DNA from: Micrococcus luteus NCTC 2665
Lineage (GTDB): Bacteria; Actinomycetota; Actinomycetes; Actinomycetales; Micrococcaceae
Direction of reading: 5' to 3'
DNA: 32,000 nucleotides
Assembly (NCBI RefSeq): GCF_000023205.1
Contig: NC_012803.1
Location: forward strand, 2,070,001 to 2,102,000
The position numbers and the translations under genes are program-made. The notes under the pieces are model-generated. The model was not told the DNA's origin, ran no database searches, and was given only the letters and a program-made list of their open reading frames with translations. This document shows positions 1,569-30,923 of the stretch, piece after piece. The first letter of the stretch is position 1. Each line of letters opens with the position of its first letter.

Positions 1569-2325
1569 TCAGGCGACCGACGCCCCCAGCAGGGAGCCCA
1601 CCGCGAAGGTCAGGCCGAGCGCCAGGGCGCCGCCGAGGACGACGCGCACGGCCGCCCGCAGCGCGGGCGCGTCGCCGAGCCGGGCCCCGACCCAGCCGGT
1701 GACGGCGAGGGCCACGAGGGTGACGCCGAACGTGAACGGGACGGCGGAGGCCCACCGGCGCCAGGACGACCGTCAGGAAGGGCAGCAGCGCACCCACGAG
1801 GAACGCGAGGAAGGACGCTCCGGCGGCGGCCCACGGGCTGACGACGTCCTCCTCCGCCATGCCCAGCTCCATGCGCAGATGCGCGGCGAGCGCGTCCTTC
1901 TCGGTGAGCTCCCGCGCGGCGGCCTCGGCCGTGGCCCGGCTCAGGCCGTCCGCCTCGAAGAGCTGTACGAGCTCCTCCAGCTCGCCCTCTGGATCCTCCT
2001 CGAGCTCGCGGCGCTCCTTGGCGATCAGCGACTTCTGCGAGTCGGAGGACGAGGAGACGGACACGTACTCGCCCAGCGCCATGGAGAAGGCGCCGCCGAC
2101 CACGGCGGCGGCGCCGGCCAGCAGGATCGGGGTGAGCGCCGTCGTCGCGCCGGCGACACCGACGACGGTGGCGGCGACGGACACGATGCCGTCGTTGGCG
2201 CCGAGCACGCCCGCGCGGAGCCAGTTGAGGCGGGCATGCACGCCGCCGGTGGCGTGCGGCTCGTCGGGACCGCCCGGCGGGACCTGATCTGCGAGGGGCG
2301 AGGACTGTTCAGACGTGTGCGACAT
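1569..2325 (-). pseudogene. VIT1/CCC1 family Fe/Mn exporter with an apparent 1-nt insertion frameshift near 1743
   Basis: From the ATG at 2325 the protein reads MSHTSEQ...NWLRAGVLGANDGIVSVAATVVGVAGA...GEYVSVSSSSDSQ...LPFLTVVLAPVGLR, then becomes Arg/Pro-rich junk. The neighbouring frame continues VPFTFGVTLVALAVTGWVGARLGDAPALRAAVRVVLGGALALGLTFAVGSLLGASVA and stops at 1571-1569. From the first base of the ATG (2325) to the first base of that TGA (1571) is 754 nt, which is not a multiple of 3. Confidence 0.75.
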
Positions 2326-2418: not shown

Positions 2419-2432
2419 GGATTGTTCAACAA
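2419..2432. promoter_or_regulatory. Candidate GntR-type operator, GGATTGTTCAACAA (core palindrome TTGTTcAACAA), nested in a GCTGTTG/CAACAGC inverted repeat (2409-2436)
   Basis: The 14-mer is identical to 9667-9680, upstream of pxpA. It lies 62 nt upstream of the permease start (2494), in the divergent region shared with the VIT1 gene. Confidence 0.55.
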
Positions 2433-2493
2433 CAGCTACCGTCTCCCCAGCGCCTCGTGACGCCCGTCACCTCGCCTGGCGCCCTCGACGAAG

Positions 2494-3777
2494 GTGACCA
2501 CCGTGTCCCACGCAGACATCCCCCACGCCGGACCGGACGGCTCGACCCCCTCGGGCACCGCGCCGAAGACCGACTCCCGCGCTGCGAGCGCCACCCGGCG
2601 CACCGCACTGCTCGGCGCCATGTTCCTCATGGCCACCTCGGCCATCGGCCCCGGCTTCATCACGCAGACCGCCACGTTCACCGTCCAGATGGGCGCCGCA
2701 TTCGCGTTCGCCATCCTGGTCTCGATCCTCATCGACATCGCCGTCCAGATGAACGTGTGGCGCGTCATCGGCGTCTCCGGCATGCGCGCCCAGGAGCTGG
2801 CGAACAGCGTCCTGCCCGGCCTCGGCTGGGTCCTCGCCGCGCTCGTGTTCCTCGGCGGCATGGTCTTCAACATCGGCAACATCGCCGGCACCGGCCTCGG
2901 CGCGAACGCCATGCTCGGCGTCGACCCCCTGATCGGCGGCGCCGTCTCCGCCCTCATCGCGCTGCTGATCTTCCTCTCCAAGCGCGCCGGTGTGGCCCTG
3001 GACCGGATCGTGGTGGTGCTCGGCGCCGTCATGATCCTGCTGATGCTGTACGTGGCCATCACCTCCGCCCCGCCCGTGGGTGAGGCCCTGCGCCAGTCCG
3101 TGATGCCGGAGGAGGTCGACTTCTTCGTGATCGTCACCCTCGTGGGCGGCACCATCGGCGGCTACATCACCTACGCGGGCGCCCACCGCATGATCGACTC
3201 CGGAGTGAAGGGCGTGGACGACGTCCAGGACATCACCCGCAGCTCCGTGGCCTCGATCCTCGTGACCGGCCTGATGCGTGCCCTCCTGTTCCTGGCGATC
3301 CTCGGCGTCGTCGCCTCGGGCGCGGTCCTGTCCAAGGACAGCCTGGCCGCCTCCGCCTTCCAGGCCGCCGCCGGCGACATAGGGCTGCGCATGTTCGGCA
3401 TCGTCCTGTGGGCCGCCGCCGTGACCTCCGTGATCGGCGCGTCGTACACCTCGATCAGCTTCGTCACCCGCTCCACCACGAGCGTCCGCACCCGCAACCT
3501 GCTGACCGTCGCGTTCATCGTGGTCTGCACCGCCCTCTACCTGGCGCTGCGCCAGGCCCCGCAGACGCTGCTCGTGTTCGCCGGCGCGTTCAACGGCATG
3601 ATCCTGCCGGTCGGCTTCGCGGCCCTCCTCTACGTGGCCTGGCGCCGCCGCGACCTGCTGCACGGCTACCGCTACCCCCGGTGGCTGCTCGTGATGGGCG
3701 CGCTCGCGTGGCTCGTGTCCGTGTTCATCGCGGTGCGCGGGTTCGTCCCGATGGTCACGATGATCACCGGTGCCTGA
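2494..3777 (+). CDS. NRAMP-fold membrane transporter, YcsG-like subfamily (canonical metal-site motifs not seen)
   Basis: 427-aa multi-TM ORF ([24 protein letters not shown]...) resembling NRAMP TM1, but with GPGF in place of DPGN. An in-frame GTG at 2503 is an alternative start. The DUF1445 gene follows immediately. Confidence 0.8.
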
Positions 3778-3778
3778 G

Positions 3779-4582
3779 ATGACCACGACGACGCCGCTGC
3801 CGCCGCTGGACGGCGCCACGACCCCCGCGCAGGCCCGCGAGCGCTTCCGCGCGGGGCTCGTGCGGCCGACCTCGGGGATCGCCGACGGCTACGCCCAGGC
3901 GAACCTCGTCTCGATCCCGCAGGACCACGCCTACGACGTCCTGCTCTTCGCCCAGCGCAACCCCAAGGCCCTGCCGCTGCTCGGCGTGTTCGAGGCCGGC
4001 GAGGTCAACGGCCCCGCACTGGACGGCGACGTCCGCACGGACGTGCCGCAGTACGTGGTGTACCGCGACGGCGTCGAGACGGACCGCCCCACGGATCTGC
4101 TCGACGTGTGGCGGGACGACCTCGTGACGTTCGTGATCGGCTGCTCGTTCACCTTCGAGTCCGCCCTGGTGGCCGAGGGCATCCGGATGGCCCACCAGGA
4201 CGCCGGCGTGAACGTGCCGATGTACCGCACCACGCGGCGCTGCGCCTCGGCGGGCCGCCTCTCGGGCCCGCTCGTGGTCTCGATGCGCCCCATCCCCGCC
4301 GACCGCGTGGCCGACGCCGTGCGCATCACCTCCCGCTACCCCGCCGTGCACGGCGCGCCCGTGCACGTGGGCGACCCGGCCGGCCTGGGGATCACGGACC
4401 TGTCGGCACCGGACTTCGGCGACGCCGTCGAGGTCCCGCAGGGCCACCTGCCCGTGTTCTGGGCGTGCGGGGTGACGCCGCAGGCGGCGATCATGGAGTC
4501 CCGCCCGCCGCTGGCCATCACGCACGCGCCCGGGCACATGCTCATCACGGACCTGCCGGACCGGATGTTCCAGGTCCCGTGA
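3779..4582 (+). CDS. DUF1445/UPF0317 putative hydro-lyase (YcsI / D-glutamate cyclase family)
   Basis: Translation reads ...[52 protein letters not shown]...[12 protein letters not shown]...NVPMYRT...VVSMRP...[14 protein letters not shown]...[10 protein letters not shown], matching the family as I recall it. The ATG at 3779 lies 1 nt after the permease stop. A GTG at 3770 is an alternative start with an 8-nt overlap. Confidence 0.8.
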
Positions 4583-4604
4583 CCGCCCGGGCCCGGGGAG
4601 GCGA

Positions 4605-5312
4605 TCAGTCCCCCGCGGCGGCGAGGTGCGCCAGGACGAAGTGCTCCGCCTCGTCCAGGTAGCCGCCGAACATGGCGTGCACCGCGGGCAGGTCGCCGAC
4701 CAGCAGCCGCTCCACGATCCACCGGTTGCGGTCCGCGAACTGCACGTGCAGGCGCGTCTGCTCGTCCATCGGATGGAACGCCAGGCGCACGCGGGCCTGC
4801 ACCGACGCCATGAGCCGCGTGAGCTCGGGGGCGCCGGCCAGGTCCACGATGCCGACGTGGACGCGATGGTTGGCGTCGCCCAGGACCCGCGCGGGGGTGT
4901 CCGGGCCGCCGGAGAGCAGGTCCTGGGCACAGCGCAGGTGGCGCGCCGCGCCGGGGGTGAGCTCTCCGTGCTCGAGGGCGCCGAGCTGGATCACCCGACG
5001 CGTGCGGTACAGCCCGCGCACGTCCTCCGGCCCCGGCGCCGCCACGAACACCCCGCGGTGCGGCCGGCGCTCCACGAGGCCCTCCGAGGCCAGCATGGTG
5101 AACGCCTCGCGCAGGCTGTTGCGGCTGACCTGGAGCTCGGCGGCCAGCGCCACCTCCCCCAGCCGCTCCCCCGGCACGAGCCCGGCCGCCGCGATCCGCT
5201 GCCGCAGCTGCGCGGCCGCGGCCACGGGAGCCGGCGCCGGGGCGGACTCCCCGTCACCGGCGCCGGGCGCGAGGTCCTCCCCGGTGACACCGCCGCGCGC
5301 CGGCACCCTCAC
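4605..5312 (-). CDS. GntR family (FadR-like C-terminal domain) transcriptional regulator
   Basis: The winged-helix region reads [55 protein letters not shown], followed by a helical effector domain. The proposed GTG start at 5312-5310 overlaps the upstream TGA (GTGA). An in-frame GTG at 5306 is an alternative. Confidence 0.85.
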
Positions 5313-7084
5313 GCCCCCAGCCGGGCGATCGCCTGGCCGCGCGTCACCGAGGCCGGGGTCTCGGCCACGAGGAGCTGGATCCGGCCCGCACGCGGGGCAC
5401 GGATCGGCGTCTCCATCTTCATCGCCTCGACGATCGCGACCGTGTCGCCCTCGGCCACCTCGGCGCCGTCCTCGACCTTCCACGAGGCCAGGGTGCCGGT
5501 GACCGGCGAGGCCACGGCGCCGTCGTCGTCGGGCTTCCCGGCGCCCGCGGCGCCGGCCGGGGCCGCGGCACCCGGACCGCCGCCTCCGAGGAGGGCCGCG
5601 TAGAGATCGGCGGGCAGGCCCAGGCGCACGGCGCGGCCGTCCAGCTCCACGGTGACGGCGGTGCGGCCGCCGGCGGGCACCTCGGCGCCCAGGTAGGGGG
5701 ACTCGGCCAGCGGCTCGGCGAACTCGGACTCGATCCACGTGGTGTAGACGCCGAGGCGGTCCCCCGAGGTGAAGGCGTCCTGCTCGAGCACGGCGCGGTG
5801 GAACGGCACCACGGTGGGCACGCCGTCGATGCGCAGCTCGGCCAGGGCGTCGCGGGCGCGGGCGACGGCCTGGGCGCGGTCCTCGCCCCACACGATGAGC
5901 TTGGCGAGCAGGGAGTCGTACTCACCCGGCACCACGGAGCCGGTGCGGACGCCGGAGTCCATGCGGACCCCGGGGCCGGTGGGGGCCTCGAACGCGTCGA
6001 TCGGGCCGGGCACGGGCAGGAAGCCGTACGCCGGCTCCTCGGCGTTGAGGCGGAACTCGAGGGCGTGGCCGCGCGGCGTCGGGTCCTCGGGGATGCTCAG
6101 CGGCTCGCCGGCGGCGACGCGGAACTGCTCGCGCACCAGGTCCACACCGAAGACCTCCTCGGTGACCGGATGCTCCACCTGCAGGCGGGTGTTCACCTCC
6201 AGGAAGCTGATGAGGCCGTCCGGGGCCACGAGGTACTCGACCGTGCCGGCCCCGGTGTACCCGGCGGCGCGGCAGATCTCGCGGGCGGAGGTGTGGATGC
6301 GCTCGCGCTGCTCGTCCGTGAGGAACGGCGCCGGGGCCTCCTCCACGAGCTTCTGGTTGCGGCGCTGCAGGGAGCAGTCGCGGGTGCCGAGCACGGCCAC
6401 GTGGCCGTGCTCGTCGGCGAGGACTTGGGCCTCCACGTGGCGGGGGCGGTCCAGGAAGCGCTCCACGAAGCACTCGCCGCGGCCGAATGCGGCCACGGCC
6501 TCGCGGACGGTCGCCTCGAACGCGTCCTCGACGTCGCCGAGCTCACGCACCACGCGGATGCCGCGGCCGCCGCCGCCGAAGGCCGCCTTGATCGCGATCG
6601 GCAGGCCGTGCTCCTCGGCGAACGCGCGCGCGGCGGCGGCGTCCGGCACGGGGCCGTCCGAGCCCGGCACGAGCGGGGCGCCCGCCTGCTGGGCGAGGGA
6701 GCGGGCGGTGATCTTGTCGCCGAGGGCGCGGATGGCGTCCGGCGACGGGCCGATCCAGGTCATCCCGGCGTCGATCACGGCCTGCGCGAAGTCGGCGTTC
6801 TCGGAGAGGAAGCCGTAGCCCGGGTGCACGGCGTCGGCGCCGGCGCGGCGGGCGACGTCGAGGACCGCGTCGATCTTCAGGTAGGTGTCCGCCGAGGACG
6901 CGCCCGGCAGGTGGAAGGCCTCGTCCGCGACGGCCACGTGCAGGGCGTCGGCGTCCGGATCCGAGTAGACGGCGATCGAGGCGATGCCGTGGTCGCGGGC
7001 GGCGCGGGCCACGCGCACGGCGATCTCGCCGCGGTTGGCGATGAGCACCCGCGTGACGGGGCGGGCGGCGGGGGTGGTGGTCAT
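5309..7084 (-). CDS. Biotin carboxylase fused to biotin carboxyl carrier domain (acyl-CoA carboxylase alpha-subunit architecture, BC+BCCP)
   Basis: [14 protein letters not shown], the ATP-grasp region ([28 protein letters not shown]) and a C-terminal lipoyl/biotinyl domain with EAMKME. The ATG at 7084 overlaps the pxpB::pxpC stop (ATGA). Confidence 0.93.
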
Positions 7085-8838
7085 GCGGGGGTCTCCTCGG
7101 AGGGCGATGCGGAGTCGACGACGGTCTCGGCGCCGGGGCGGGGATGGGGGACGAAGCGGACGCGGGCGCCCGGCGGCAGCTGGGCCGCCAGGCTGAGGTC
7201 CGCGCGGGCCACGACGCCGATCACCGGGTAGCCGCCGGTGACCGGATGGTCGGAGAGGAACAGGACGGGCTCACCCGAGGGCGGCACCTGCAGCGCGCCG
7301 CGCACGGCGCCCTCGGACTTCAGCTCACCCTCGCGCACGCGCTCGAGCGGCGCGCCGCCGTCGGGGGCCGTGAGGCGCACCCCGATCCGGTCGGTCTGCT
7401 GGCTCACATCCCAGTCCTGCGTGAACAGGCGCTCCAGGCCCGCCGCGCCGAACCAGTCGTCGCGGGGGCCGGGGACCACGCGCAGCACGGCCACCTGTCC
7501 GGGCGCGGGCATGGGGCGCAGCGAGGTCTCCGGGTCCCCCACCAGCACGACGCCGGCCTCCTCCGAGGCGGGGGCGCCGGCGGCGGCCGGGCTCGCGGCC
7601 GAGGCGCCGGCGGCGCCCCTCGCATCCGGGCCGACGCGGCGGGCGAGGCGGTCCCCCGCCGCCAGCGGGGCGGGGCCGAGCCCGGACAGGGTGTCGGTCG
7701 AGCGGCTGCCGAGCACGCGCGGCACGTCGAGCCCGCCCCGGAGGCCCACGTACACGCGCAGGCCGCCGGCCGGCTCGTCCACCGTCAGCGTCTGGCCGTC
7801 CAGCACGACGAACGGGGTGCGGGCGGGCACCCGGCGCGTGGCGCCGTCGGCCGCGGTAATCGTCCCTCCGGCCTCGGCGCCGGCCAGGGCCATCACCTGG
7901 TGGCCGTGCGCGGTGAGGGTGAGGCCCCCCAGGACGGTCTCCAGCACCGCCTCGCGTGAGCGGTTGCCCACGAGCCGGTTCGCCTGGCGCGCCGCGTCCC
8001 GGTCGGCCGCGCCGGACGCGACGACGCCGAGGTCGCCCAGGCCCGGGCGGCCCAGGTCCTGGACCAGGGTCAGGAGCCCCGGGTCGACGACGGTGACACC
8101 GCGGCGGCCGGCCACGGGCGGGAGGCCGGCCGCGGCGTCGGCGGGCGTGTCCTCGACCGCCGCGTCCGTGCCGGAGGTGACGGACGCCGTCGGGCGCACG
8201 GGGACGTAGCGGACACGGTCGCCGGGCTGCAGCAGGGCGGGCTGCTCGCGGCCGAGGTCCCACAGGGCCGCGGTGGTGTGGCCCAGCAGCTGCCAGCCGC
8301 CGGGCGAGGTGCGCGGGTAGACGGCGGAGAAGGCCCCGGCGACGGCGACGGCGCCCGCGGGGACGGCCGTGCGGGGCGAACTGCGGCGGGGCGCCTCGAA
8401 CGGGGCCGCCTCGGAGGCGCAGTACATGAACCCCGGCGCGAAGCCGCCGAACGCGGCGAACCAGTCGGCCTCGCTGTGGGCCCGGATGACGCCGTCGACG
8501 CCGAGCCCGGTGAGCCGGCCGACCTCGGCGAGGTCCTCACCGTCGTAGACCACGGGGATCTCGACGATGCGGCCCCCCGTCAACTCACCGGCGTCCGGGG
8601 TGAGGGTGCTGACCCGCGGTGCGGCATGCTCGGCGGCGGCCTGCGAGGTGAAGGTCACCAGGACGGTCGCGGCGGCGGCCATGACCTGGCGCTGGCCGCG
8701 CTCCGGGTGGGCCGTGAGATGGGCGTGGACGGCCATGACGTCCTCGAGCGAGGCGCACTCGACGAGGAAGCCCTGTGTGCCGACCCAGCGGATCGGGCGG
8801 GCCGGCGGTGTGGTGGCGGAGTGACGTGGGTCGCTCAT
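7081..8838 (-). CDS. Fused 5-oxoprolinase subunits PxpB (KipI/AHS1-like, N-terminal) and PxpC (KipA/AHS2-like, C-terminal), 585 aa
   Basis: The N-terminal half reads GFLVEC...[16 protein letters not shown]...[14 protein letters not shown]...[31 protein letters not shown]. An Ala/Thr/Asp-rich linker follows. The C-terminal half reads [18 protein letters not shown]...[18 protein letters not shown]...DRIGVRL...[12 protein letters not shown]. Both ends overlap neighbouring genes as ATGA. Confidence 0.88.
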
Positions 8839-9602
8839 GCGAAGGCCTTGACGGCCACGCCCGCGCCCTCGAGCGCGCGGCGCACGGCCGCGGCCATGGC
8901 CACGGCGCCGGGCGTGTCGCCGTGCAGGCAGATGCTCTCGGCGTCGACGCGCACGTCCGTGCCGTCCACTGCTGTGACGACGCCCTCGGTGGCCAGGCGC
9001 ACCATGCGGGCGGCGACGGCGTCCTCGTCGTGGAGGACCGCGCCGGGCTCGCGGCGGGAGACGAGCGTGCCGTCCGGGTTGTAGCCGCGGTCCGCGAAGG
9101 CCTCGGCGACGCCGCGCAGCCCCGCGGCGGCCGCCTTGTCCAGGGCGACGGAGCCGGGCAGGAGCAGCAGCGGGAGGTCGGAGCCGAACGCCTTGACGCC
9201 GTCGACGACGGCCTGGGCGTGCGCCTCGTGACGGACGATCGTGTTGTAGAGGGCGCCGTGCGGCTTCACGTAGCGGACCTGGCCGCCGGCCGCGCGGGCG
9301 AGCGCGTCGAGGGCGCCGATCTGGTAGTGGACGTCGTCGGCCAGCTCGGTGGGCGTGCAGTCCAGGAAGCGGCGGCCGAAGCCGGCGAGGTCGCGGTAGC
9401 CCACGTGCGCGCCGATCGTGACGCCGGCGGCGACCGCGTCACGGCAGGTCTGGGCGATCCCCGAGGGATCGCCCGCGTGGAAGCCGCACGCGACGTTGGC
9501 GGAGGAGACGGAGGGCATGATGGCGGCGTCGTCCCCCATCGTCCACGAGCCGAAGGACTCGCCGACGTCGGAGTTCAGGTCGATCTGCGGCGCGTGAGAC
9601 AC
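8835..9602 (-). CDS. pxpA: 5-oxoprolinase subunit A (LamB/YcsF family)
   Basis: [12 protein letters not shown]....[62 protein letters not shown] start at 9602-9600 with AGAGGA about 8 nt upstream. Confidence 0.93.
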
Positions 9603-9666
9603 AGTGGAGTCCTCTCGGATCGGGCCCGGCTGAGGTGCCGGTCACACAATCTTGAGGCATGAGGGG

Positions 9667-9683
9667 GGATTGTTCAACAATCC
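9667..9683. promoter_or_regulatory. Perfect 17-bp palindrome GGATTGTTcAACAATCC, candidate operator of the local GntR regulator
   Basis: It lies 65 nt upstream of the pxpA start and shares GGATTGTTCAACAA with 2419-2432. On the pxpA strand it contains TTGAAC, followed 17 nt later by CAAGAT, a weak -35/-10-like arrangement. Confidence 0.6.
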
Positions 9684-9721
9684 TCGGCGCGCCCTCCAGA
9701 CGCTCACCCGGTCCGCTCGGT

Positions 9722-9782
9722 AACGCGGGTTGAGTTATCGCGGGTGTCCGAGCCCGAGACCTGCGATAACTCAACCCGCGTT
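9722..9782. repeat. Perfect 20-bp inverted repeat (AACGCGGGTTGAGTTATCGC / GCGATAACTCAACCCGCGTT) with a 21-nt spacer
   Basis: Arms at 9722-9741 and 9763-9782 are exact reverse complements. It lies 20 nt downstream of the yqjG-like stop and upstream of the pxpA promoter region. No U-tract on either strand. Confidence 0.85.
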
Positions 9783-9802
9783 GCAGGCCGAGCCGGGCGG
9801 CC

Positions 9803-10954
9803 TCACCGCAGCGGCGTGTGCTCCGGGTCCACGCGCTCGCCCTCGCGCACGGGCCCGGGTGCGGTGCCGCCGCCCCACGGGTCGCCGCCGAACTCCTCGC
9901 GCCCGTGCTCGCTCAGCCAGCTCGCCAGCTCCGGGCCCGCGGGCACGATGCGCGTCGGGTTGATGTCCTCGTGGACCACGTAGTAGTGCTCCTTGATCTG
10001 CGCGAAGTCGATCGTGTCGCCGAAGCCCGGGGTCTGGAACAGGTCGCGCGCGTAGCCCCACAGCGCCGGCATCTCGGTCAGCTTGTTCCGGTTGCACTTG
10101 AAGTGCCCGTGGTACACGGGGTCGAACCGCACGAGCGTGGTGAACAGCCGCACGTCGGCCTCGGTGATCCGCTCCCCCATCAGGAAGCGGCGCGTCGTCA
10201 GGCGCTCCTCGAGCCAGTCCATCGCGGCCCACAGCCGCTCGTACGCGGCGTCGTACGCCTCCTGCGAGCCCGCGAAGCCGCACCGGTACACGCCGTTGTT
10301 CACCTCGGTGAACACGCGCTCGATCACCTCGAACATCTCGTCCCGCTCCGGTCCGGCGTCTGGGATCAGCTGCGGGGCGCCGTCGCGGTGGAACGTGGTC
10401 CACTCCGTCGAGAGGTCGAGGGTGATCTGCGGGTAGTCGTTGGTCACGACGCCGCCCGTCGGCACGTCGACGATCGCCGGCACCGTGATGCCCCGCGGAT
10501 AGTCGGGGAACCGCGTGAAGTAGTTCTCCTGGATCCGCTCGGTGCCGAGCACGGGGTCCTTCCCGCCCTCGTCGAGGTCGAAGGTCCAGGAGCGCTCGTC
10601 GTGGGTCGGCCCCGGGGTGCCCAGCGAGATCGCGTCCTCCAGGCCGAGCAGGCGCCGCACGATGATCGTCCGGTTCGCCCACGGGCACGCCCGCGCCGCC
10701 ACGAGCCGGTAGCGGCCCGCCTCGACGGGCCACGCCTCCGCCCCCTCGGTGAGCCCGCCGCCCACGCGGCCGACCGTGGACGGCTCGGCCACGGGCAGGG
10801 CCCGCACGGCCTCCGGGTCCGCCACGATCCGGTCCGCGATGTAGTTCGTGTCCCGCGTGAACTCCGCCCCGGACTGCACGTAATTGCCCGTGAGCCCCTC
10901 GCGCGTGTCGATGGTGCCGCGGTCCGCGGCCTGGCCGGTCTGCTGGTTCTCCAT
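9803..10954 (-). CDS. Xi-class glutathione S-transferase / glutathionyl-hydroquinone reductase (YqjG/ECM4 family)
   Basis: From the ATG at 10954, MENQQTG...GRYRLVAARACPWANRTIIVRRLLGLEDAISL carries the CPWA active-site motif. The C-terminal GST domain includes GERITEADVRLFTTLVRFDPVYHGHFKCN. The longer 654-aa ORF would overlap the divergent MBL gene. Confidence 0.9.
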   Translation of the reverse strand: MENQQTGQAADRGTIDTREGLTGNYVQSGAEFTRDTNYIADRIVADPEAVRALPVAEPSTVGRVGGGLTEGAEAWPVEAGRYRLVAARACPWANRTIIVRRLLGLEDAISLGTPGPTHDERSWTFDLDEGGKDPVLGTERIQENYFTRFPDYPRGITVPAIVDVPTGGVVTNDYPQITLDLSTEWTTFHRDGAPQLIPDAGPERDEMFEVIERVFTEVNNGVYRCGFAGSQEAYDAAYERLWAAMDWLEERLTTRRFLMGERITEADVRLFTTLVRFDPVYHGHFKCNRNKLTEMPALWGYARDLFQTPGFGDTIDFAQIKEHYYVVHEDINPTRIVPAGPELASWLSEHGREEFGGDPWGGGTAPGPVREGERVDPEHTPLR

Positions 10955-10966
10955 ACACTCGAGCCT

Positions 10967-11782
10967 ATGACGACGACCACCGCCACACCCGGCCCCACGC
11001 CCGCCCCGCTGGTGCGCTGCGTGACCGCCCAGAACCCCTCCCCGATGACCCTCGCGGGCACCAACACGTACGTGGTCGCCGCACCGGACTCGGACGCGGC
11101 CGTCGTGGTGGACCCGGGCCCGGAGGACGACGTCGCCGCCCACCTCGAGCGCGTCCGTGCGGCGGCCGAGGGGCGCCGGATCGCGCTCATCCTGGTGACG
11201 CACCGGCACGCCGACCACACCGGCGGGGTGGACGCGTTCCACGCGGCCACGGGCGCCCCCGTGCAGGCCGCGGACCCGGACTGGTGCCGCGGCGGGGCCG
11301 CCGTCCTGACGCCGGACGAACGGATCGACGTCGCCGGCACCCCGGTGCTGGCGTGGCACACCCCGGGCCACACCTCGGACTCCTACTCGTTCGCCGTCCC
11401 GGACGCCGGCGCGCACGGCGCGGTCCTCACGGGCGACACCATCCTCGGCTCGGGCACCACCATGCTCGACCACCCGGACGGCATCCTCACCGACTACCTG
11501 GCCAGCCTGCGCCGCCTCGAGGCGGCGGGCCCGCTCACGGTGCTGCCCGCGCACGGGCCCGTGCCGGAGCCGCTGGACGTCGTCGCCCGCGACTACCGGC
11601 ACCACCGCGAGGGCCGCCTGGAGCAGATCCGCGCCGCCCTGGCCGCGTTGCCCGAGGCCGAGGCGGCGACGATCACGCCCGAGGACCTGGCCCCGCGCAT
11701 CTACCCCGGCCTCACCGGCACCGTGGCCCGCGTGGCCGTCCAGACGGTGGCCGCGCACCTGCGCCACCTGCGCGAGGGCTGA
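10967..11782 (+). CDS. MBL-fold metallo-hydrolase (glyoxalase II-like)
   Basis: From the ATG at 10967: TNTYVV..., the LVTHRHADHTGG (HxHxDH) motif, WHTPGHTSDS, LTGDTILG and LPAHGP. Confidence 0.88.
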   Translation: MTTTTATPGPTPAPLVRCVTAQNPSPMTLAGTNTYVVAAPDSDAAVVVDPGPEDDVAAHLERVRAAAEGRRIALILVTHRHADHTGGVDAFHAATGAPVQAADPDWCRGGAAVLTPDERIDVAGTPVLAWHTPGHTSDSYSFAVPDAGAHGAVLTGDTILGSGTTMLDHPDGILTDYLASLRRLEAAGPLTVLPAHGPVPEPLDVVARDYRHHREGRLEQIRAALAALPEAEAATITPEDLAPRIYPGLTGTVARVAVQTVAAHLRHLREG

Positions 11783-25496: not shown

Positions 25497-26078
25497 TCAT
25501 CCTCGCCGCACTGTGTCGAGGTCCCACGCGTGGGGCAGGGGCGTCCGGGTCGACGGCAGGGCCACGCTGCGCCGCCACTCGTGCAGCCACTCCGGCAGCG
25601 TCGGCTCCCCCGCGAGGTCGTGGCCGGCCGCCGCCGCGATCGCCCGGATCTCGTCGTTCTCCACGGGGCGGCCGTCCTTCTTGCGCAGGCGCGTGCAGAT
25701 GTACGCGCGCACCGCGACGTCGCCGTCGACCACCACGCGCTGCTCGAACCACACCGCGCGCTCGTCCAGGCCGATCAGCCGCGTCTCCACGTCGAACCGC
25801 TGCCCCAGGGTCACGGAGCGGCGGAACGCGATCTGCTCGGCCTGCACCACGGGCGTCCAGCCGCGACGGCGGATCTCGTCCCAGAGACCGGTGCGGACCA
25901 TCGCGTCGAAGCGGCCGAGGTCGAACAGCCCGAAGTACTGGCCGTTGTTGACGTGCAGGGCGATGTCCACGTCCGTGGGCAGGGCGCGCATCGGCAGCGT
26001 CGTCGGCTCCCAGAGCCCGACGCGCGGGCGGCGGCGGGCGCGGGCGACGACCCAGATCGTGCGGGGGATCAGATGCAT
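25497..26078 (-). CDS. Hotdog-fold acyl-CoA thioesterase-like protein
   Basis: DVDIALHVNNGQYFGLFDLGRFD...VVQAEQIAFRRSV is a 4HBT-like pattern. GAGGAGG lies 7 nt upstream of the ATG, and the gene starts 19 nt after the putA stop. Confidence 0.7.
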   Translation of the reverse strand: MHLIPRTIWVVARARRRPRVGLWEPTTLPMRALPTDVDIALHVNNGQYFGLFDLGRFDAMVRTGLWDEIRRRGWTPVVQAEQIAFRRSVTLGQRFDVETRLIGLDERAVWFEQRVVVDGDVAVRAYICTRLRKKDGRPVENDEIRAIAAAAGHDLAGEPTLPEWLHEWRRSVALPSTRTPLPHAWDLDTVRRG

Positions 26079-26097: not shown

Positions 26098-29000
26098 TCA
26101 CAGGACCCCCTCGGTCAGATGGTCCGGCGTGCCGAACCGGTGGGCGGTCACGGACACGGCCTGTTCGTGCAGGAACGGCAGCAGCTCCACCTCACCGGCG
26201 CTCACCACGGGGCCAGCGTAGACCGCCACGTCGGGGGTGTCGCCGAGCGCCGCGTGGAGCGCGGTCCGCGCCGCCTCGGCCGCTTCCCGGTTGCCGGTCC
26301 AGTCGGCGACGAGCCGGATCCGTGCGTCGCCGCCGCCCTCCGTCGCGGGCGGGACCAGGGCCAGCCGCCGGGCGCGGTCGTGGAACACGGCGTCGTCCTC
26401 GACGACGACGTCCACCGGCGCGGCCGTGCCGGCACCCTCCGTGCGGACGGACCGGACCAGCTCCTCCACCCGGCCGCGCACGGCCTCGGCCGAGAGCCTG
26501 TCCGCGTCGGGCCCCTCCGCGGTGGGGGTCGGGCGCAGGCTCACGGTCATGGGCGCCCCGGCGCGCAGGCCGGCGGAGACGATGCGCAACAGGTGGTCGG
26601 CGGGCCCCGAGTGCCGGCGCACGAGGACCGGGGTGGGGACGTGACGCATCACGTTCCGCTCGGCCTCGAGCGCGGAGACGTCCGTGGCCACCCCGAACAC
26701 GGTGGTCCACGCGTGGGTGTCGAGGGCGCGGGCGGTCTCGAGCCAGGACGCTCCCGCACCGTCGGCCTCGGACCCGGGCCGTCCCTCTCCCCCGGCCCAC
26801 GTGGGCGCGTCCTCCCAGTCCACGAGGCCGTGCAGGTAGTGCGGCCCGCCGGCCTTCGTGGTGGGGCCGACGACGGAACGCTTCCAGCCGCCGAAGGGCT
26901 GGCGGCGCACGATGGCCCCGGTGATGCCGCGGTTCACGTAGAGGTTGCCGGCGCGCACGCCGCGCAGCCACACGTCGATCTCCTCCCGGTCCAGCGAGTG
27001 CAGCCCGGAGGTGAGGCCGTAGTCCACGGCGTTCACGATCCCGATCGCCTCCTCGAGCGTCTCGGCCGTCATCACGGCCAGCACGGGGCCGAAGTACTCG
27101 GTGAGGTGGGCGTCGGCGCCGGGGCGGACGCCGGAGCGGATGCCCGGGCTCCACAGGCGACCCGTCTCGTCCAGCTGCCGCGGACGCAGGGCCCACCGCT
27201 CCCCCGGGCCGAGCTCGGTGAGCCCGCGGCGCAGCTTCTCGCCGGGGGCCTCGATCACGGGGCCCATCTCGGCGCGCGGGTCCGCGGGGTGCGCCACGTG
27301 CAGGGACGAGGCGGCGTCCAGCAGCTGCCGGTGGAAGCGCTCGGAGGTGGCCACGGAGCCGACGAGCACCACGAGGGAGGACGCCGAGCACTTCTGGCCG
27401 GCGTGACCGAACGCGGACTGGACCACGTCCTTCGTGGCCAGGTCCAGATCCGCGGACGGGGTCACGATCACGGCGTTCTTGCCGGAGGTCTCGGCGAGCA
27501 GGTGCAGGTCGGGGCGCATCCCCTTGAACAGCCGTGCGGTGTCCCAGCCGCCGGTGAGGATGAGCCGCTCGACGGCCGGGTCGGTCACGAGCACCGCGCC
27601 GACCTCCGCCTCGTCCTCGTCCGCCAGCGTCACCAGGCGCACGAGGTCCGCGGGGTCGTGCCCGGCGAGCGGGCCGCCGTCGTCGAACAGGCCCGAGTCC
27701 CGCAGCCCGGCCACGATCAGCTCCCACGCGACCGCGCCCGTCCGCTCGGACTGCGGGGCCGGCTTGAACACCACGGGCGAGCCGGCGCCGAGCGCGGCGA
27801 GGACGCCCCCGACCGGGATGGCCACGGGGAAGTTCCACGGCGGGATCACCAGGGTCAGGCGGACGGGCACGGCGCGAGCGCCCTCCACCGCGTCCAGGCC
27901 GCGGGCCAGGCGCGCGTAGTAGTGCGCGAAGTCCACGGCCTCGGAGACCTCGGGGTCGCCCTGGTCCAGGGTCTTGCCGGTCTCGGCGGCGGCCACCTCC
28001 AGCAGACGGGCCCGGCCGGCGTGCAGGGCCCGGCCGACGGCGTCCAGCGCGTCGGCGCGCTCGTGGCCGGTGAGCGCGCCCCAGCGGGCGCCGGGGTCGG
28101 CGGTGGCGGCGATGGCGGCGCGGGCGTCGTCGGCCGTGGTGGCGCGGTGGGCGCGGACGGTGTCCGTCCCGAGGTCCGAGCCCGGGACGGCCGTGAGGAT
28201 CCGGCGGGCCCACTCCCGGTTGCCGGGCAGCGCGGGGTCCGTGTCCGGGGTGTTGGCGAAGCCGTCCACGGGGGCGGGGGTCGGCCCGTCCTCCCCGCGG
28301 GACCGGTCCTGGACGCGGTTCGGACGGGGCACGGCCGCGTCCAGGTGGCGCAGCGAGGCGCGGAAGCGCTCCTCCTCGCGGGCGAACAGGTCCGCGTCCG
28401 CGCCCAGGTCGAACACGGCGGACATGAAGTTCTCCGGGGAGGCACCCTCCTCGAGGCGGCGCACGAGGTAGGAGATCGCCACGTCGAACTCCTCGGGCCG
28501 CACCACGGGCGTGTAGAGCAGCAGGGCGCCGACGTCGGCCCGGACGGCGGCGGCCTGGCCGGTGGCCATGCCGAGCAGCATCTCGAACTCCACCGCGGCC
28601 GAATCGAGGCCGCGGCGCTCGATCAGCCGGTGGGCCAGGGCCACGTCGAAGAGGTTGTGCCCGGCCACGCCGATGCGCACGTGGGCCAGATGCTCCGGGG
28701 TGAGCGCGTAGTTGAGCACGCGCTTGTAGTTGGTGTCCGCCTCCTGCTTCGAGCCCACCGTGGCCAGCGGCCAGCCCGTCAGGGAGGCCTGCATCCGCTC
28801 CATGGGCAGGTTGGCGCCCTTGACCACGCGTACCTTGACCGGGGCGCCGCCGGCGGCGACGCGGCGCGCGGCCCACTCCTGCAGGCGCACCATGGCCGCG
28901 AGCGCGTCCGGCAGGTAGGCCTGCAGCACGATGCCGGCCTCGTAGTCGCGCAGGCCCGGCTGCTCGAGCAGGGCGGTGAACACGTTGAGCGTGAGGTCGA

Positions 29001-29742
29001 GGTCGCGGTACTCCTCCATGTCCAGGTTGATGAAGGTGTCCCGGTCCCGGGCGAGCTCGAACAGCGGGGTGAGCCGCTCGGTGATGTCCGCGACGGCCTC
29101 GTCGAACGCGTAGGGCGCGTGCGGGGCGGTGGCGGCGGAGACCTTCACGGACACGTAGTCGACGTCGTCGCGGCGGATCAGCGCGGCGATGCCCTCGAGC
29201 CGGCGGTCCGCCTCGCCCTGACCGAGGATCGCCTCGCCCAGCAGGTTGATGTTCAGCCGGGTGTGCTCGTCGCGCAGGGCCGTGATGGCCTTGCCGAGCT
29301 GCCGGTCCCGCGCGTCGACGATCAGGTGGGAGACCATGCGCCGCAGCACGCGGCGGGCCGTGGGGACGGCGATGCGCGGCACAAGCGGGGCCGCGCGGCC
29401 GCCGGCGCCGAGGACGGCGCGCAGTGCCGGGGGCAGGAAGCCGGGGGCGCGGCCGGCGAGCTCCCGCAGCGCCCGGGCGGCGATCGCGGGGTCCTCGGGG
29501 CGGACCACGTGGTCCACGAAGCGCACGATGAAGTCGAGGCCGCCCGGCTCCTTCAGGGCGCCCGCCAGCTGGCGGGCCGCGAAGTCGGCCTCATGGTCGC
29601 GGGACTCGGCGAGCCAGCGCCTCACCTGCGCGACGGCGTCGTCGGCGAGGGCGTGCAGGTCGGCGGGGTCGGGGATCCCGCCGGTCGCGCCGAGGACCCG
29701 GTCGAGATCGTCGTGGTCCTGGGCGGAGAACGTCGCGGTCAT
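26098..29742 (-). CDS. putA: Bifunctional proline dehydrogenase / L-glutamate gamma-semialdehyde (P5C) dehydrogenase
   Basis: From the ATG at 29742 (MTATFSAQ...): a PRODH barrel region (VSVKVSA, LDMEEY, VVKGAN) followed by an ALDH domain (PWNFP, ETSGKNA, FGHAGQKCSASS). About 1214 aa, with no N-terminal RHH DNA-binding domain evident. Confidence 0.92.
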   Translation of the reverse strand: MTATFSAQDHDDLDRVLGATGGIPDPADLHALADDAVAQVRRWLAESRDHEADFAARQLAGALKEPGGLDFIVRFVDHVVRPEDPAIAARALRELAGRAPGFLPPALRAVLGAGGRAAPLVPRIAVPTARRVLRRMVSHLIVDARDRQLGKAITALRDEHTRLNINLLGEAILGQGEADRRLEGIAALIRRDDVDYVSVKVSAATAPHAPYAFDEAVADITERLTPLFELARDRDTFINLDMEEYRDLDLTLNVFTALLEQPGLRDYEAGIVLQAYLPDALAAMVRLQEWAARRVAAGGAPVKVRVVKGANLPMERMQASLTGWPLATVGSKQEADTNYKRVLNYALTPEHLAHVRIGVAGHNLFDVALAHRLIERRGLDSAAVEFEMLLGMATGQAAAVRADVGALLLYTPVVRPEEFDVAISYLVRRLEEGASPENFMSAVFDLGADADLFAREEERFRASLRHLDAAVPRPNRVQDRSRGEDGPTPAPVDGFANTPDTDPALPGNREWARRILTAVPGSDLGTDTVRAHRATTADDARAAIAATADPGARWGALTGHERADALDAVGRALHAGRARLLEVAAAETGKTLDQGDPEVSEAVDFAHYYARLARGLDAVEGARAVPVRLTLVIPPWNFPVAIPVGGVLAALGAGSPVVFKPAPQSERTGAVAWELIVAGLRDSGLFDDGGPLAGHDPADLVRLVTLADEDEAEVGAVLVTDPAVERLILTGGWDTARLFKGMRPDLHLLAETSGKNAVIVTPSADLDLATKDVVQSAFGHAGQKCSASSLVVLVGSVATSERFHRQLLDAASSLHVAHPADPRAEMGPVIEAPGEKLRRGLTELGPGERWALRPRQLDETGRLWSPGIRSGVRPGADAHLTEYFGPVLAVMTAETLEEAIGIVNAVDYGLTSGLHSLDREEIDVWLRGVRAGNLYVNRGITGAIVRRQPFGGWKRSVVGPTTKAGGPHYLHGLVDWEDAPTWAGGEGRPGSEADGAGASWLETARALDTHAWTTVFGVATDVSALEAERNVMRHVPTPVLVRRHSGPADHLLRIVSAGLRAGAPMTVSLRPTPTAEGPDADRLSAEAVRGRVEELVRSVRTEGAGTAAPVDVVVEDDAVFHDRARRLALVPPATEGGGDARIRLVADWTGNREAAEAARTALHAALGDTPDVAVYAGPVVSAGEVELLPFLHEQAVSVTAHRFGTPDHLTEGVL

Positions 29743-29873
29743 GGCCGCACTCTGCACGTGTGCCGGGTCACAGGTCAAACCGCCGCGGCTTCCTGTCAGA
29801 CGCCTATGCTCGATGGACATCCCCTCGCCGCGCGCCCGCGCGTCGCCGCCGTCTTCCCAGGAGCCCGTCCGCC

Positions 29874-30923
29874 ATGGCCGCCGCCGACCCCGTCCCCACC
29901 GACGCGCGGGAGCGCCGGGACGTCGTCGTGCCCGTGCCCGGACCCGAGGACCCGCCCGAGCGGGCCTGGCTCGTCCTGCCCCACCGCCACCCGGTGCGGA
30001 CGCTGCTGGACGAGACGCGGGACGCCGTCGTCGGCCTGGCCGAGACGCTCGCCGCCGTACTGCCGGTGACCGTGCTCGCCCACCCGCGCGACGCCGGGGC
30101 GGCGCGGCTGGTGCCCCCGGAGGTGGACCTGCTGCGCGCGCCCGTGGGCTCGCCGCTGCTGGGCCGCACCGGGCCGAGCTTCGTCCGGCGCCCCGAGGGC
30201 CTGGCCGCCGTCGCCTGGCGCAGCGCCGCGGGCCTGACCGGGACCGGGCCGCTCGACGGAGCGGCCGCGACGGCCGTGGCGGAGGCGGCGGGACTGCCGC
30301 TGCTCACGCCCCTGCTGTGCGCCCCGCGCGGGGCCTGGGTGACCGACGGCGAGGGGACGGCCGTGGTGGCCGCGGACCCCTTGCTGGACGGGCGGATCAA
30401 CGGCGCGTGGACCCCCGGCCAGGTGGCCGCCGAGTTCGCCGCCCTGCTGGGGATCACCCGGGTGCTGTGGCTGCCGCCGGCACCGCGGCCGGACACCGGG
30501 CCGTGGGGCGGGCCCGGCCACCTGGCCTCGTGGGTGCGGCTGCGGGGCGACGGCGAGGCCGCCGTGCACTGGCGCGGCGACCGGTTCCACCCCGAGCACC
30601 CCTACGCCGCGGCGGTGCTGCGCTTCCTGCAGGGCGCCGACGACGCCGCCGGACGGCCCCTGCGCGTGCGCACGGTGACCGGGGCGGCGCAGCCCGCCGC
30701 GTACGACCCGGCCGAGCGGGGCCCCCGCTCCCTCCTGGACACTCTGCCGCTGGGCGCGGCGGTGCTGCGCCCGGCGTTCGAGGACGCCGCGGGCGAGGAG
30801 GCCGCGGCCGCCGCGTGTGCGGCACTGCACCCGGGGCTGCCCCAGCTGTCGTTCCCCGCCCCGCCGCTGCTGCGGCTGGCCGGCGCGCTCAACGACCTGG
30901 TGCTGCTCCAGCCTCGCCCGTGA
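29874..30923 (+). CDS. Agmatine deiminase / PAD_porph-fold protein with non-canonical residues at expected catalytic positions
   Basis: From the ATG at 29874 (AGGAG 9 nt upstream): AWLVLPH, PVTVLA, GRTGPSFV, VTDGEGTAVV, LGITRVLWL, DAAGRPLRV. The C-terminus reads LAGALNDLVLLQPRP where the family normally has GGG..HC.TQQ.P. Confidence 0.6.
   Translation: MAAADPVPTDARERRDVVVPVPGPEDPPERAWLVLPHRHPVRTLLDETRDAVVGLAETLAAVLPVTVLAHPRDAGAARLVPPEVDLLRAPVGSPLLGRTGPSFVRRPEGLAAVAWRSAAGLTGTGPLDGAAATAVAEAAGLPLLTPLLCAPRGAWVTDGEGTAVVAADPLLDGRINGAWTPGQVAAEFAALLGITRVLWLPPAPRPDTGPWGGPGHLASWVRLRGDGEAAVHWRGDRFHPEHPYAAAVLRFLQGADDAAGRPLRVRTVTGAAQPAAYDPAERGPRSLLDTLPLGAAVLRPAFEDAAGEEAAAAACAALHPGLPQLSFPAPPLLRLAGALNDLVLLQPRP

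Follow-up and report, generated by a model that had tools for sequence, protein, structure and literature searches.

Organization of the locus

The chromosome of Micrococcus luteus NCTC 2665 carries a pxp (5-oxoprolinase) locus within the 32,000-nucleotide stretch analyzed here (contig NC_012803.1, positions 2,070,001 to 2,102,000, hereafter the window, to which all unlabeled positions refer), whose G+C content ranges from 65 to 81%. The locus consists of two convergent operons: one on the plus strand, encoding an NRAMP-like transporter and a DUF1445 protein, faces one on the minus strand, encoding PxpA, a PxpB::PxpC fusion (PxpB::C), a protein that combines biotin carboxylase (BC) and biotin carboxyl carrier protein (BCCP) domains, and a GntR-type regulator. 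A first-pass annotation, made from the sequence alone, had proposed this layout, and the six open reading frames (ORFs) lie where it had placed them. Families were assigned by the Pfam gathering cut-offs and by NCBIfam models with their own cut-offs. Each of the six proteins scored above the gathering cut-off of the Pfam family named for it, including the 585-amino-acid (aa) fusion, the 591-aa BC-BCCP protein encoded within the operon and the GntR-type regulator. The features are the following:

2419..2435, no strand, operator box 1, GGATTGTTCAACAACAG, whose 13-bp core is that of the Corynebacterium glutamicum PxpR site, about 68 bp before the importer start codon
2494..3777, plus strand, NRAMP-like transporter of the PxpT/YcsG type (Pfam Nramp, 73 bits)
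3779..4582, plus strand, DUF1445/D-Glu_cyclase protein, "putative hydro-lyase" (Pfam, 223 bits)
4605..5312, minus strand, GntR repressor, last gene of the enzyme operon (Pfam GntR, 61 bits)
5309..7084, minus strand, BC plus BCCP protein, 591 aa (Biotin_carb_N, CPSase_L_D2, Biotin_carb_C and Biotin_lipoyl)
7081..8838, minus strand, fused PxpB::PxpC, 585 aa (CT_C_D at aa 16-203 and CT_A_B at aa 270-564)
8835..9602, minus strand, PxpA (LamB/YcsF), first gene of the enzyme operon (Pfam LamB_YcsF, 341 bits)
9667..9683, no strand, operator box 2, GGATTGTTCAACAATCC, a perfect palindrome centered 72 bp upstream of the pxpA start

The four genes of the enzyme operon are linked by 4-nt start/stop overlaps (ATGA at 8835-8838 and 7081-7084, GTGA at 5309-5312), all three of which had been listed by the first-pass annotation, and the public M. 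luteus gene calls have identical gene boundaries and overlaps. Three starts are ambiguous: the GntR gene may begin at GTG 5312 or GTG 5306, the importer gene at 2494 or 2503, and the DUF1445 gene at GTG 3770 or ATG 3779. The importer and DUF1445 genes are accordingly separated by a 1-nt spacer or, with the GTG 3770 start, overlap by 8 nt. Neither consensus sigma-70 promoters nor intrinsic terminators were detected when both promoter regions and the convergent gap were scanned, as expected in an actinobacterium of 72% G+C. Across the locus, 8.4 kb was 99.988% identical to the M. luteus NCTC 2665 chromosome LS483396.1, the sole difference being a 1-nt indel outside the pxp locus.

A shared operator and its probable regulator

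The palindrome that had been noticed in both promoter regions is real: its 13-bp core, GATTGTTCAACAA, is found at 2420-2432 and 9668-9680, i.e., twice in the window against 0.04 occurrences expected by chance. The pxpA copy (GGATTGTTCAACAATCC) is a perfect 17-bp palindrome, and the importer copy (GGATTGTTCAACAACAG) is palindromic in its left half and core only. In C. glutamicum, the GntR-type regulator PxpR (Cg1143) represses pxpTABC through a 17-bp inverted repeat, AGATTGTTCAACAATCT, centered 65 bp upstream of pxpT, and mutation or deletion of this site derepressed the promoter 6.5-fold (PMC13274462, published in 2026). PxpR bound 5-oxo-L-proline with a dissociation constant of 726 nM and did not bind glutamate, glutamine, proline, or aspartate, and both pxpT and pxpABC were needed for growth on 5-oxoproline (PMC13274462). 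Both M. luteus boxes contain the entire 13-bp core of the C. glutamicum site, and the pxpA box is identical to AGATTGTTCAACAATCT at 15 of 17 positions, the mismatches being the two outermost ones, placed symmetrically. The spacing is also similar, with 68 bp (importer) and 72 bp (pxpA) to the start codons compared to ca. 65 bp in C. glutamicum. Judging from this likeness, we read the palindrome of both promoter regions as a PxpR-type operator.

The GntR protein matched Pfam GntR at aa 32-90 (61 bits) and, below the cut-off, FCD at aa 118-213 (20 bits). From operator identity, protein family, and synteny, we infer that it is the PxpR ortholog of M. luteus. Since the palindrome corresponds to a validated PxpR box, and PxpR binds 5-oxo-L-proline, this compound is the most likely inducer and substrate of the locus. 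The substrate had previously been left open, and the operator would thus narrow it; the uptake, ring opening, and possible carboxylation of an oxoproline-like lactam, proposed at the same time, is the reading that the evidence favors.

The gene order and the operator are conserved in related loci

A profile of the fused PxpBC was run against a collection with one genome per species and identified at least 574 relatives among the 600 matching stretches listed. The survey set comprised 80 loci with 10-kb flanks (1.44 Mb in total), annotated with the six proteins of the window. In 70 of the loci the sequence extended far enough downstream for gene order to be judged, and in 46 to 47 of these the order pxpA, pxpBC, BC-BCCP was colinear, mostly with a GntR gene next; a looser adjacency criterion labeled 52 loci as BC positive. 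The BC gene was never seen without pxpA and pxpBC in the 80 loci. Overlaps of 4 nt were present at 39 of 71 pxpA/pxpBC junctions and at 19 of 46 pxpBC/BC junctions, most of the latter being at most 20 nt. The overlap between the BC and GntR genes was confined to Micrococcus, with gaps of 2 to 136 nt elsewhere.

The operator was searched as ATTGTT[C/G]AACAAT with at most one mismatch, its expectation being computed from base composition. It was found 83 times, against ca. 0.1 expected, and 72 of the 83 matches lay less than 200 bp upstream of a pxpA, NRAMP-like, or GntR gene. A homologous GntR gene together with the box was present in 46 of the 80 loci. The box-bearing loci include those of Corynebacterium, Cryobacterium, Xenorhabdus, and Pelomonas. 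Overall, the loci were spread over Micrococcaceae (Arthrobacter, Paeniglutamicibacter, Sinomonas, and Nesterenkonia), Microbacteriaceae (Cryobacterium and Frigoribacterium), Corynebacterium (C. jeikeium, C. minutissimum, C. mastitidis, and others), Bifidobacterium, and Proteobacteria (Xenorhabdus, Pelomonas, and one Paracoccaceae metagenome-assembled genome).

The fusion, the BC-BCCP gene, the GntR regulator, and the palindrome are therefore parts of a variant that is common and conserved, and they are not peculiar to M. luteus. The first-pass annotation had listed them as what distinguishes this locus from the one of Bacillus subtilis. The features themselves stand, but the gene order recurs in about 50 of the 80 loci, the fused PxpBC is already a large NCBI-named family with a solved homolog (TTHA0988), and the GntR regulator with its palindrome is already known as the PxpR system of C. 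glutamicum (PMC13274462).

An alignment of 13 regions upstream of pxpA showed the operator box as the only invariant block. Arthrobacter-type loci also conserve a -10-like element (TGnGCATnCT) about 15 nt after the box, which would thus occupy the -35 position, as expected for a repressor site. The M. luteus importer promoter has a single box. In Arthrobacter- and Sinomonas-type loci, the NRAMP-like gene is preceded by two PxpR boxes at a distance of 23 to 25 bp from each other, and one divergent intergenic region has three (L001, 10886/10910; L002, 16420/16444; L003, 9118/9142/9165; L004, 18511/18535; and others). Such pairs suggest cooperative repressor binding at the importer promoter. A few matches lie away from the pxpA, importer, and regulator genes (L029, ca. 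6307; L030, ca. 7782; L056, ca. 1305) and may mark further members of the regulon.

The enzyme operon

PxpA scored 367 bits against the NCBIfam PxpA subfamily NF003814 (cut-off, 226) and fell below the PxpA equivalog models; it has homologs in the PDB (1V6T, 2DFA, 2XU2, and 1XW8) and is presumed to be the metal-dependent lactam hydrolase subunit. The two domains of PxpB::C (CT_C_D, nt 8230-8793; CT_A_B, nt 7147-8031) have the urea-carboxylase-type carboxyltransferase fold, and their Pfam families are those of the C-D and A-B subdomains of the urea carboxylase carboxyltransferase. The score against the generic model TIGR00724 was 229.1, for a cut-off of 230.2. The protein represents a divergent subfamily, listed at NCBI as "5-oxoprolinase subunit B/C family protein."

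The closest PDB sequences to PxpB::C were Mycobacterium smegmatis MSMEG_0435 and MSMEG_0436 (187 and 144 bits), with Escherichia coli YbgK/J at 127 and 116 bits and urea carboxylase at 116 bits. An AlphaFold model (mean predicted local distance difference test score, 71) had TTHA0988 as its best structural match (E = 7e-38; template modeling score of 0.78 over the target), followed by MSMEG_0435/0436, E. coli YbgJK, and the Kluyveromyces lactis urea carboxylase/amidolyase (3VA7 and 5I8I, E of ca. 1e-16). The fold also matches KipI.

In the BC-BCCP protein, BC spans aa 10-452 and BCCP aa 524-589, the biotinyl lysine being Lys556 in EAMKME (nt 5417-5419). All BC catalytic motifs, EFRLNAE among them, are intact in the M. 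luteus protein, and the BC catalytic and biotinyl-lysine motifs are kept in 46 to 47 of 48 orthologs (MKM in 46 of 48). On this basis, the protein looks functional. In Frigoribacterium sp. Leaf263 (L058, 11713-13257), the BC homolog downstream of pxpBC is an open 515-aa reading frame. The best PDB match of the M. luteus protein is the mycobacterial AccA3 (748 bits, full length), and its public annotation is [quoted passage not shown] No AccD-type carboxyltransferase gene was found beside the BC-BCCP gene in the M. luteus operon or in any of the ca. 50 BC loci, and PxpB::C is the only carboxyltransferase-like partner of BC-BCCP at the locus.

The importer operon

The NRAMP-like protein covers positions 10 to 350 of the 357 of the Pfam Nramp profile, and it scored 27 against the NCBIfam Nramp_1 metal-transporter equivalog (cut-off, 50). 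Sequence and profile searches identified no relative in the PDB. Across 12 orthologs, two strings never vary, IGPGF at aa 51-55 and GGTIGGY at aa 218-224; they lie at what we take, from the E. coli MntH sequence, to be the positions of the DPGN and MPH motifs. These are the canonical Nramp metal-binding motifs, located in transmembrane segments 1 and 6 (PMC6398981), and neither string is present in the M. luteus protein. It is 65 to 67% identical to the importers of Corynebacterium loci with PxpR boxes. Deletion of pxpT in C. glutamicum abolished growth on 5-oxoproline and was complemented in trans (PMC13274462). By analogy, the NRAMP-like protein is a probable 5-oxoproline importer.

The DUF1445 protein belongs to Pfam D-Glu_cyclase (PF07286) and scored 397 bits against NCBIfam PRK05463 (cut-off, 324). 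Its closest PDB entries (2PIF and 3DB9) have no assigned function, and our literature search found no described function for a bacterial DUF1445 member. Its gene and the NRAMP-like one occur as a pair in about 25 of the 80 loci. Any connection of the protein with D-glutamate or 5-oxo-D-proline is conjecture.

Comparison with known systems

The pxpR-pxpTABC system of C. glutamicum shares with the M. luteus locus a GntR repressor, the 13-bp operator core, an NRAMP-like importer, the PxpA/B/C families, and an actinobacterial host (PMC13274462). They differ in that M. luteus has PxpB and PxpC fused, a BC-BCCP gene between pxpBC and the regulator, the regulator as last gene of the enzyme operon instead of divergent, and the importer in a separate convergent operon with DUF1445, so that there are two operators instead of one. 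The B. subtilis cluster pxpA-ycsG-ycsI-pxpB-pxpC-kipR groups the same five families (PxpA, the NRAMP-like YcsG, the DUF1445 protein YcsI, PxpB, and PxpC), but in one operon, with the IclR-type KipR, unfused PxpB and PxpC, and no BC-BCCP. According to its citation in PMC10448178, the study of Niehaus et al. (2017) already counted M. luteus among the genomes clustering pxpABC with ycsG.

The domain inventory of the enzyme operon recalls another family. Urea carboxylase unites BC, KipA/KipI-like carboxyltransferase, and BCCP domains in one chain (PDB 3VA7). All domains of the K. lactis urea carboxylase/amidolyase (3VA7 and 5I8I), i.e., BC, carboxyltransferase A-B and C-D, and BCCP, are present in M. 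luteus together with a hydrolase partner. In M. luteus, however, they are split over two polypeptides, with C-D before A-B, and the hydrolase partner is of the LamB/YcsF family (PxpA) instead of an amidase-signature allophanate hydrolase.

Closest to both halves of PxpB::C among solved proteins are M. smegmatis MSMEG_0435-0436 (PDB 3MML and 9YX5), while AccA3 is closest to BC-BCCP. [quoted passage not shown] There, MSMEG_0435 is not fused to MSMEG_0436 and the BCCP comes from a housekeeping acyl-CoA carboxylase, whereas M. luteus has a dedicated BC-BCCP gene, coupled by an overlap to the one for the fused PxpB::C and standing alongside pxpA. The Thermus thermophilus protein TTHA0988 (3OEP, 3OPF, and 3ORE) is a fused KipI-KipA chain like PxpB::C, with 32% identity and no assigned function.

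Possible counterparts with other gene arrangements exist as well. PA0492, PA0495, and PA0496 of Pseudomonas aeruginosa are presumably homologs of PxpA, PxpB, and PxpC. Transcriptome papers describe PA0494 (a BC homolog) and PA0493 (a BCCP homolog) as part of an operon with hypothetical proteins and state their function as unknown. Lactiplantibacillus pentosus has extra BC and BCCP genes, as well as pxpB and PxpC-like genes, as species-specific additions, whose adjacency is not stated in the paper. In both species BC and BCCP are separate genes, in contrast to the single gene of M. luteus. In Aspergillus nidulans, the urea-carboxylase-like LamA and the PxpA homolog LamB are reportedly required for the use of 2-pyrrolidinone under AmdR regulation. 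The lamA/lamB pair of this eukaryote, with its reported substrate 2-pyrrolidinone, would be the fully fused counterpart of BC-BCCP, PxpB::C, and PxpA. Our literature search on lamA/lamB found nothing relevant.

A model for a biotin-assisted 5-oxoprolinase

The locus is very probably the M. luteus regulon for 5-oxoproline (pyroglutamate) utilization, of the PxpR type. As to its enzyme, the best overall explanation, to which we assign a probability of roughly 0.55, is that the regulon contains a split, urea-amidolyase-like, biotin-assisted 5-oxoprolinase. That BC-BCCP is the physical and functional partner of PxpB::C appears slightly more probable than this whole, and is suggested by the domain inventory, the conserved synteny and coupling, the conservation of motifs, and the homology to proteins that contact each other via biotin; the catalysis and chemistry are deduced from these. 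N-carboxylation of the lactam by BC-BCCP and PxpB::C is a tentative proposal, somewhat short of even odds.

The GntR repressor very probably binds one box before each of the convergent operons and is released as 5-oxo-L-proline accumulates. The first operon provides the NRAMP-like importer, which has lost the Nramp metal-binding residues, and the DUF1445 hydro-lyase, and the second the ring-opening enzyme and its own repressor (PxpA, PxpB::C, the AccA3-like BC-BCCP, and GntR). In the proposed mechanism of the enzyme, BC would use ATP and bicarbonate to form carboxybiotin on its own BCCP domain, and PxpB::C would dock this domain and use its carboxyl group to carboxylate 5-oxoproline at the lactam nitrogen. 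PxpA would hydrolyze the activated N-carboxy-lactam, and the resulting carbamate would lose CO2 to give glutamate. The net reaction would be 5-oxoproline + ATP + 2 H2O -> glutamate + ADP + Pi. Known 5-oxoprolinases have the stoichiometry proposed here, and the logic would parallel that of urea amidolyase, in which urea carboxylase is combined with a hydrolase.

Several observations weigh against this model, or at least against an obligatory role of BC-BCCP. Canonical PxpABC is described as ATP dependent by itself, with ATPase activity in the copurified PxpB/PxpC (PMC8453981; PMC13274462), and no dedicated BC-BCCP accompanies PxpABC of B. subtilis, E. coli, and C. glutamicum (PMC13274462). In the M. 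smegmatis study, the binding of BCCP is interpreted as inhibition of the acyl-CoA carboxylase; its authors detected no urea carboxylase activity and point out that the urea-carboxylase catalytic residues are lacking (PMC13012033). PxpB::C scored below the NCBIfam equivalog cut-offs for PxpB (TIGR00370, 131.7 versus 145.55) and PxpC (NF045499, 167 versus 500). BC linkage formed no clade in a tree built from 77 fused PxpBC proteins, where members with and without it were interleaved. No alignment column separated the two groups, and conservation reached 95% or more in each of them at 79 columns. Where BC is lacking, the locus consists of a pxpA-pxpBC pair alone, and the genes around it are unrelated. 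Finally, the BC homolog of Frigoribacterium sp. Leaf263 has altered catalytic motifs (GGGGRG is changed, and another motif reads EFGTALAVEH) and no BCCP domain, next to intact pxpA and pxpBC.

The mix of BC-less and BC-linked loci fits two readings: BC-less enzymes may rely on the BCCP of a housekeeping carboxylase, which would be compatible with the M. smegmatis structure, or BC-BCCP may be accessory or regulatory. Since the housekeeping accBC genes are essential, genetic screens would be blind to a requirement for a borrowed BCCP. A more general and more tentative view, clearly under even odds, is that the PxpB/C-type proteins of this actinobacterial clade are carboxybiotin-using lactam N-carboxylases, whose product is hydrolyzed by PxpA. 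Lactams would in that case be the third substrate class of urea-carboxylase-type enzymes, after urea and guanidine, and the 5-oxoproline ring would be opened by a biotin-dependent route. Genomes lacking the dedicated BC-BCCP gene, such as that of M. smegmatis, would then borrow the BCCP of housekeeping AccA3, and the MSMEG_0435-0436:LCC complex would be a catalytic encounter, either alone or besides a regulatory one.

Alternative explanations

In the most serious alternative, which we regard as rather unlikely, PxpA and PxpB::C form an ordinary ATP-dependent, biotin-free 5-oxoprolinase, and BC-BCCP is either the alpha subunit of an acyl-CoA carboxylase whose biotin is sequestered by PxpB::C or serves some other carboxylation. 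With sequestration, the glutamate/5-oxoproline status would be coupled to lipid synthesis. This agrees with the activity of canonical PxpABC without a dedicated BC-BCCP (PMC13274462; PMC8453981) and with the lowering of the propionyl-CoA carboxylase activity of the LCC complex by MSMEG_0435-0436 (PMC13012033). It also agrees with the interleaved tree of PxpBC proteins inseparable by conserved residues, the decay of BC in the Leaf263 lineage, and the annotation and score of BC-BCCP as an AccA-type alpha subunit. Yet there is little regulatory logic in cotranslating BC-BCCP with a protein that inhibits it when both are controlled by a repressor that responds to 5-oxoproline, none of the ca. 50 loci has an AccD-type gene beside it, and purifying selection on its BC and BCCP motifs is evident (46 to 47 of 48 copies). 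Moreover, the same three-gene order occurs in Proteobacteria (Xenorhabdus, Pelomonas, and Paracoccaceae). These possess separate housekeeping AccB and AccC, and we rejected a role of BC-BCCP as housekeeping AccA, which is impossible for the proteobacterial copies and unlikely in M. luteus, where the gene is repressor controlled and has no AccD partner. A urea or guanidine carboxylase was also rejected. The locus encodes no amidase-signature hydrolase and thus no allophanate hydrolase, BC-BCCP and PxpB::C scored 528 and 159 bits against the single-chain urea carboxylase model TIGR02712 (cut-off, 1304), and the operator points to 5-oxoproline, not urea.

Two further alternatives keep the regulon but change its substrate or the role of the importer. 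The true substrate could be another lactam (2-pyrrolidinone/butyrolactam, 5-oxo-D-proline, or a substituted pyroglutamate), the BC variant being a paralog of the housekeeping 5-oxoprolinase. Pseudomonas putida does have pxpABC paralogs for 5-oxoproline (PP_4575-7) and butyrolactam (PP_2920-2) (bioRxiv 10.1101/2021.12.09.472016). The scores of PxpB::C below the PxpB and PxpC equivalog cut-offs and the gene of the D-glutamate cyclase family within the regulon point the same way, as would the reported need of LamA/LamB for 2-pyrrolidinone use in A. nidulans. So does Nesterenkonia natronophila (L052, 2728-13756), in which two pxpA-pxpBC sets lie within 12 kb, one with BC-BCCP, GntR, NRAMP-like, and DUF1445 genes and the other bare; in the tree, this second copy falls with the Nesterenkonia proteins that have no BC, indicating that two paralogous lineages coexist. 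Against another lactam, the operator is that of the 5-oxo-L-proline-specific PxpR, and the importer closely resembles those of Corynebacterium PxpR-box loci. Within this genus one operator serves both BC-less (C. glutamicum) and BC-containing (C. jeikeium and C. minutissimum) versions, which weakens this alternative. In addition, no second M. luteus PxpBC was present among the best 120 homologs listed (down to ca. 49% identity); the PxpBC found here probably handles endogenous 5-oxoproline too. Altogether, we consider a different lactam very improbable. It is less improbable, but still quite unlikely, that the NRAMP-like protein is an MntG-type Mn2+ importer feeding metal to PxpA, instead of a 5-oxoproline importer. 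Overexpressed YcsG of B. subtilis increased the Mn content of the cells and was then given the name MntG, and no strain mutated in ycsG, mntH, and mntA together could be constructed (PMC10448178). The M. luteus protein matches Pfam Nramp, and a VIT1-family metal-efflux gene lies divergently upstream. However, the DPGN and MPH motifs are replaced by strings invariant across the subfamily, the score is far below the metal-transporter equivalog cut-off, the gene lies under the 5-oxoproline operator, pxpT is required for growth on 5-oxoproline in C. glutamicum (PMC13274462), and a VIT1 homolog was present in none of the 80 related loci.

Neighboring genes

Next to the importer gene, the divergent VIT1-family Fe/Mn efflux gene (ca. 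1570-2325, minus strand) has an extra G at ca. 1743 relative to LS483396.1. The resulting frameshift extends the ORF to 1429 with an arginine-rich nonsense tail, the Pfam match ending at position 159 of 214. The extra G may reflect strain variation or an error in sequencing.

On the other side, an inverted repeat (9707-9797; 42-nt arms, 81% complementary, and a 7-nt loop) lies between the pxpA operator and the 3' end of a minus-strand glutathione S-transferase (GST)-like gene, whose stop is near 9803. It is probably a terminator without a T tract or an insulator that blocks read-through into the pxp operon. From 9803 to 11782, both strands have 654-aa ORFs with real Pfam matches. The region resolves into two divergent genes, one encoding a Xi-class-like GST (GST_N_2/GST_C_2, ca. 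9803-10954, minus strand) and the other a metallo-beta-lactamase-fold protein (ca. 10967-11782, plus strand), which illustrates that, in the G+C-rich DNA of this stretch, long antisense ORFs do not represent genes. The same 32 kb also encodes a Glu_synthase-domain protein (23471-25774, minus strand) and a bifunctional PutA with proline dehydrogenase and aldehyde dehydrogenase (26098-30303, minus strand), and several glutamate-producing functions are thus loosely grouped in it.

Implications

Regulon, importer, fusion, and operator all belong to kinds already known, and the BC-BCCP enzyme module is a widespread uncharacterized variant. Our literature search found no paper describing or testing a biotin-linked Pxp enzyme or a biotin-dependent 5-oxoprolinase or lactamase. 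Should the model be wrong, the locus would be the M. luteus copy of a well-described pyroglutamate regulon.

5-Oxoproline arises spontaneously from glutamate and glutamine in every cell. The widespread, strictly ordered, and translationally coupled pxpA-pxpBC-BC/BCCP module under its 5-oxoproline operator is a natural experiment on how bacterial PxpABC couples ATP to ring opening, implying that a biotin carboxylase can or must join the 5-oxoprolinase in many Actinobacteria and some Proteobacteria. If the model is correct, the biotin-dependent carboxylases would gain a new reaction type. The pairing of fungal lamA and lamB would be explained, and the blanket annotation of these BC-BCCP genes as acyl-CoA carboxylase alpha subunits would be corrected. 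It would also offer an alternative to the 2026 view of the mycobacterial homologs Rv0263c/Rv0264c as mere inhibitors of the long-chain acyl-CoA carboxylase.

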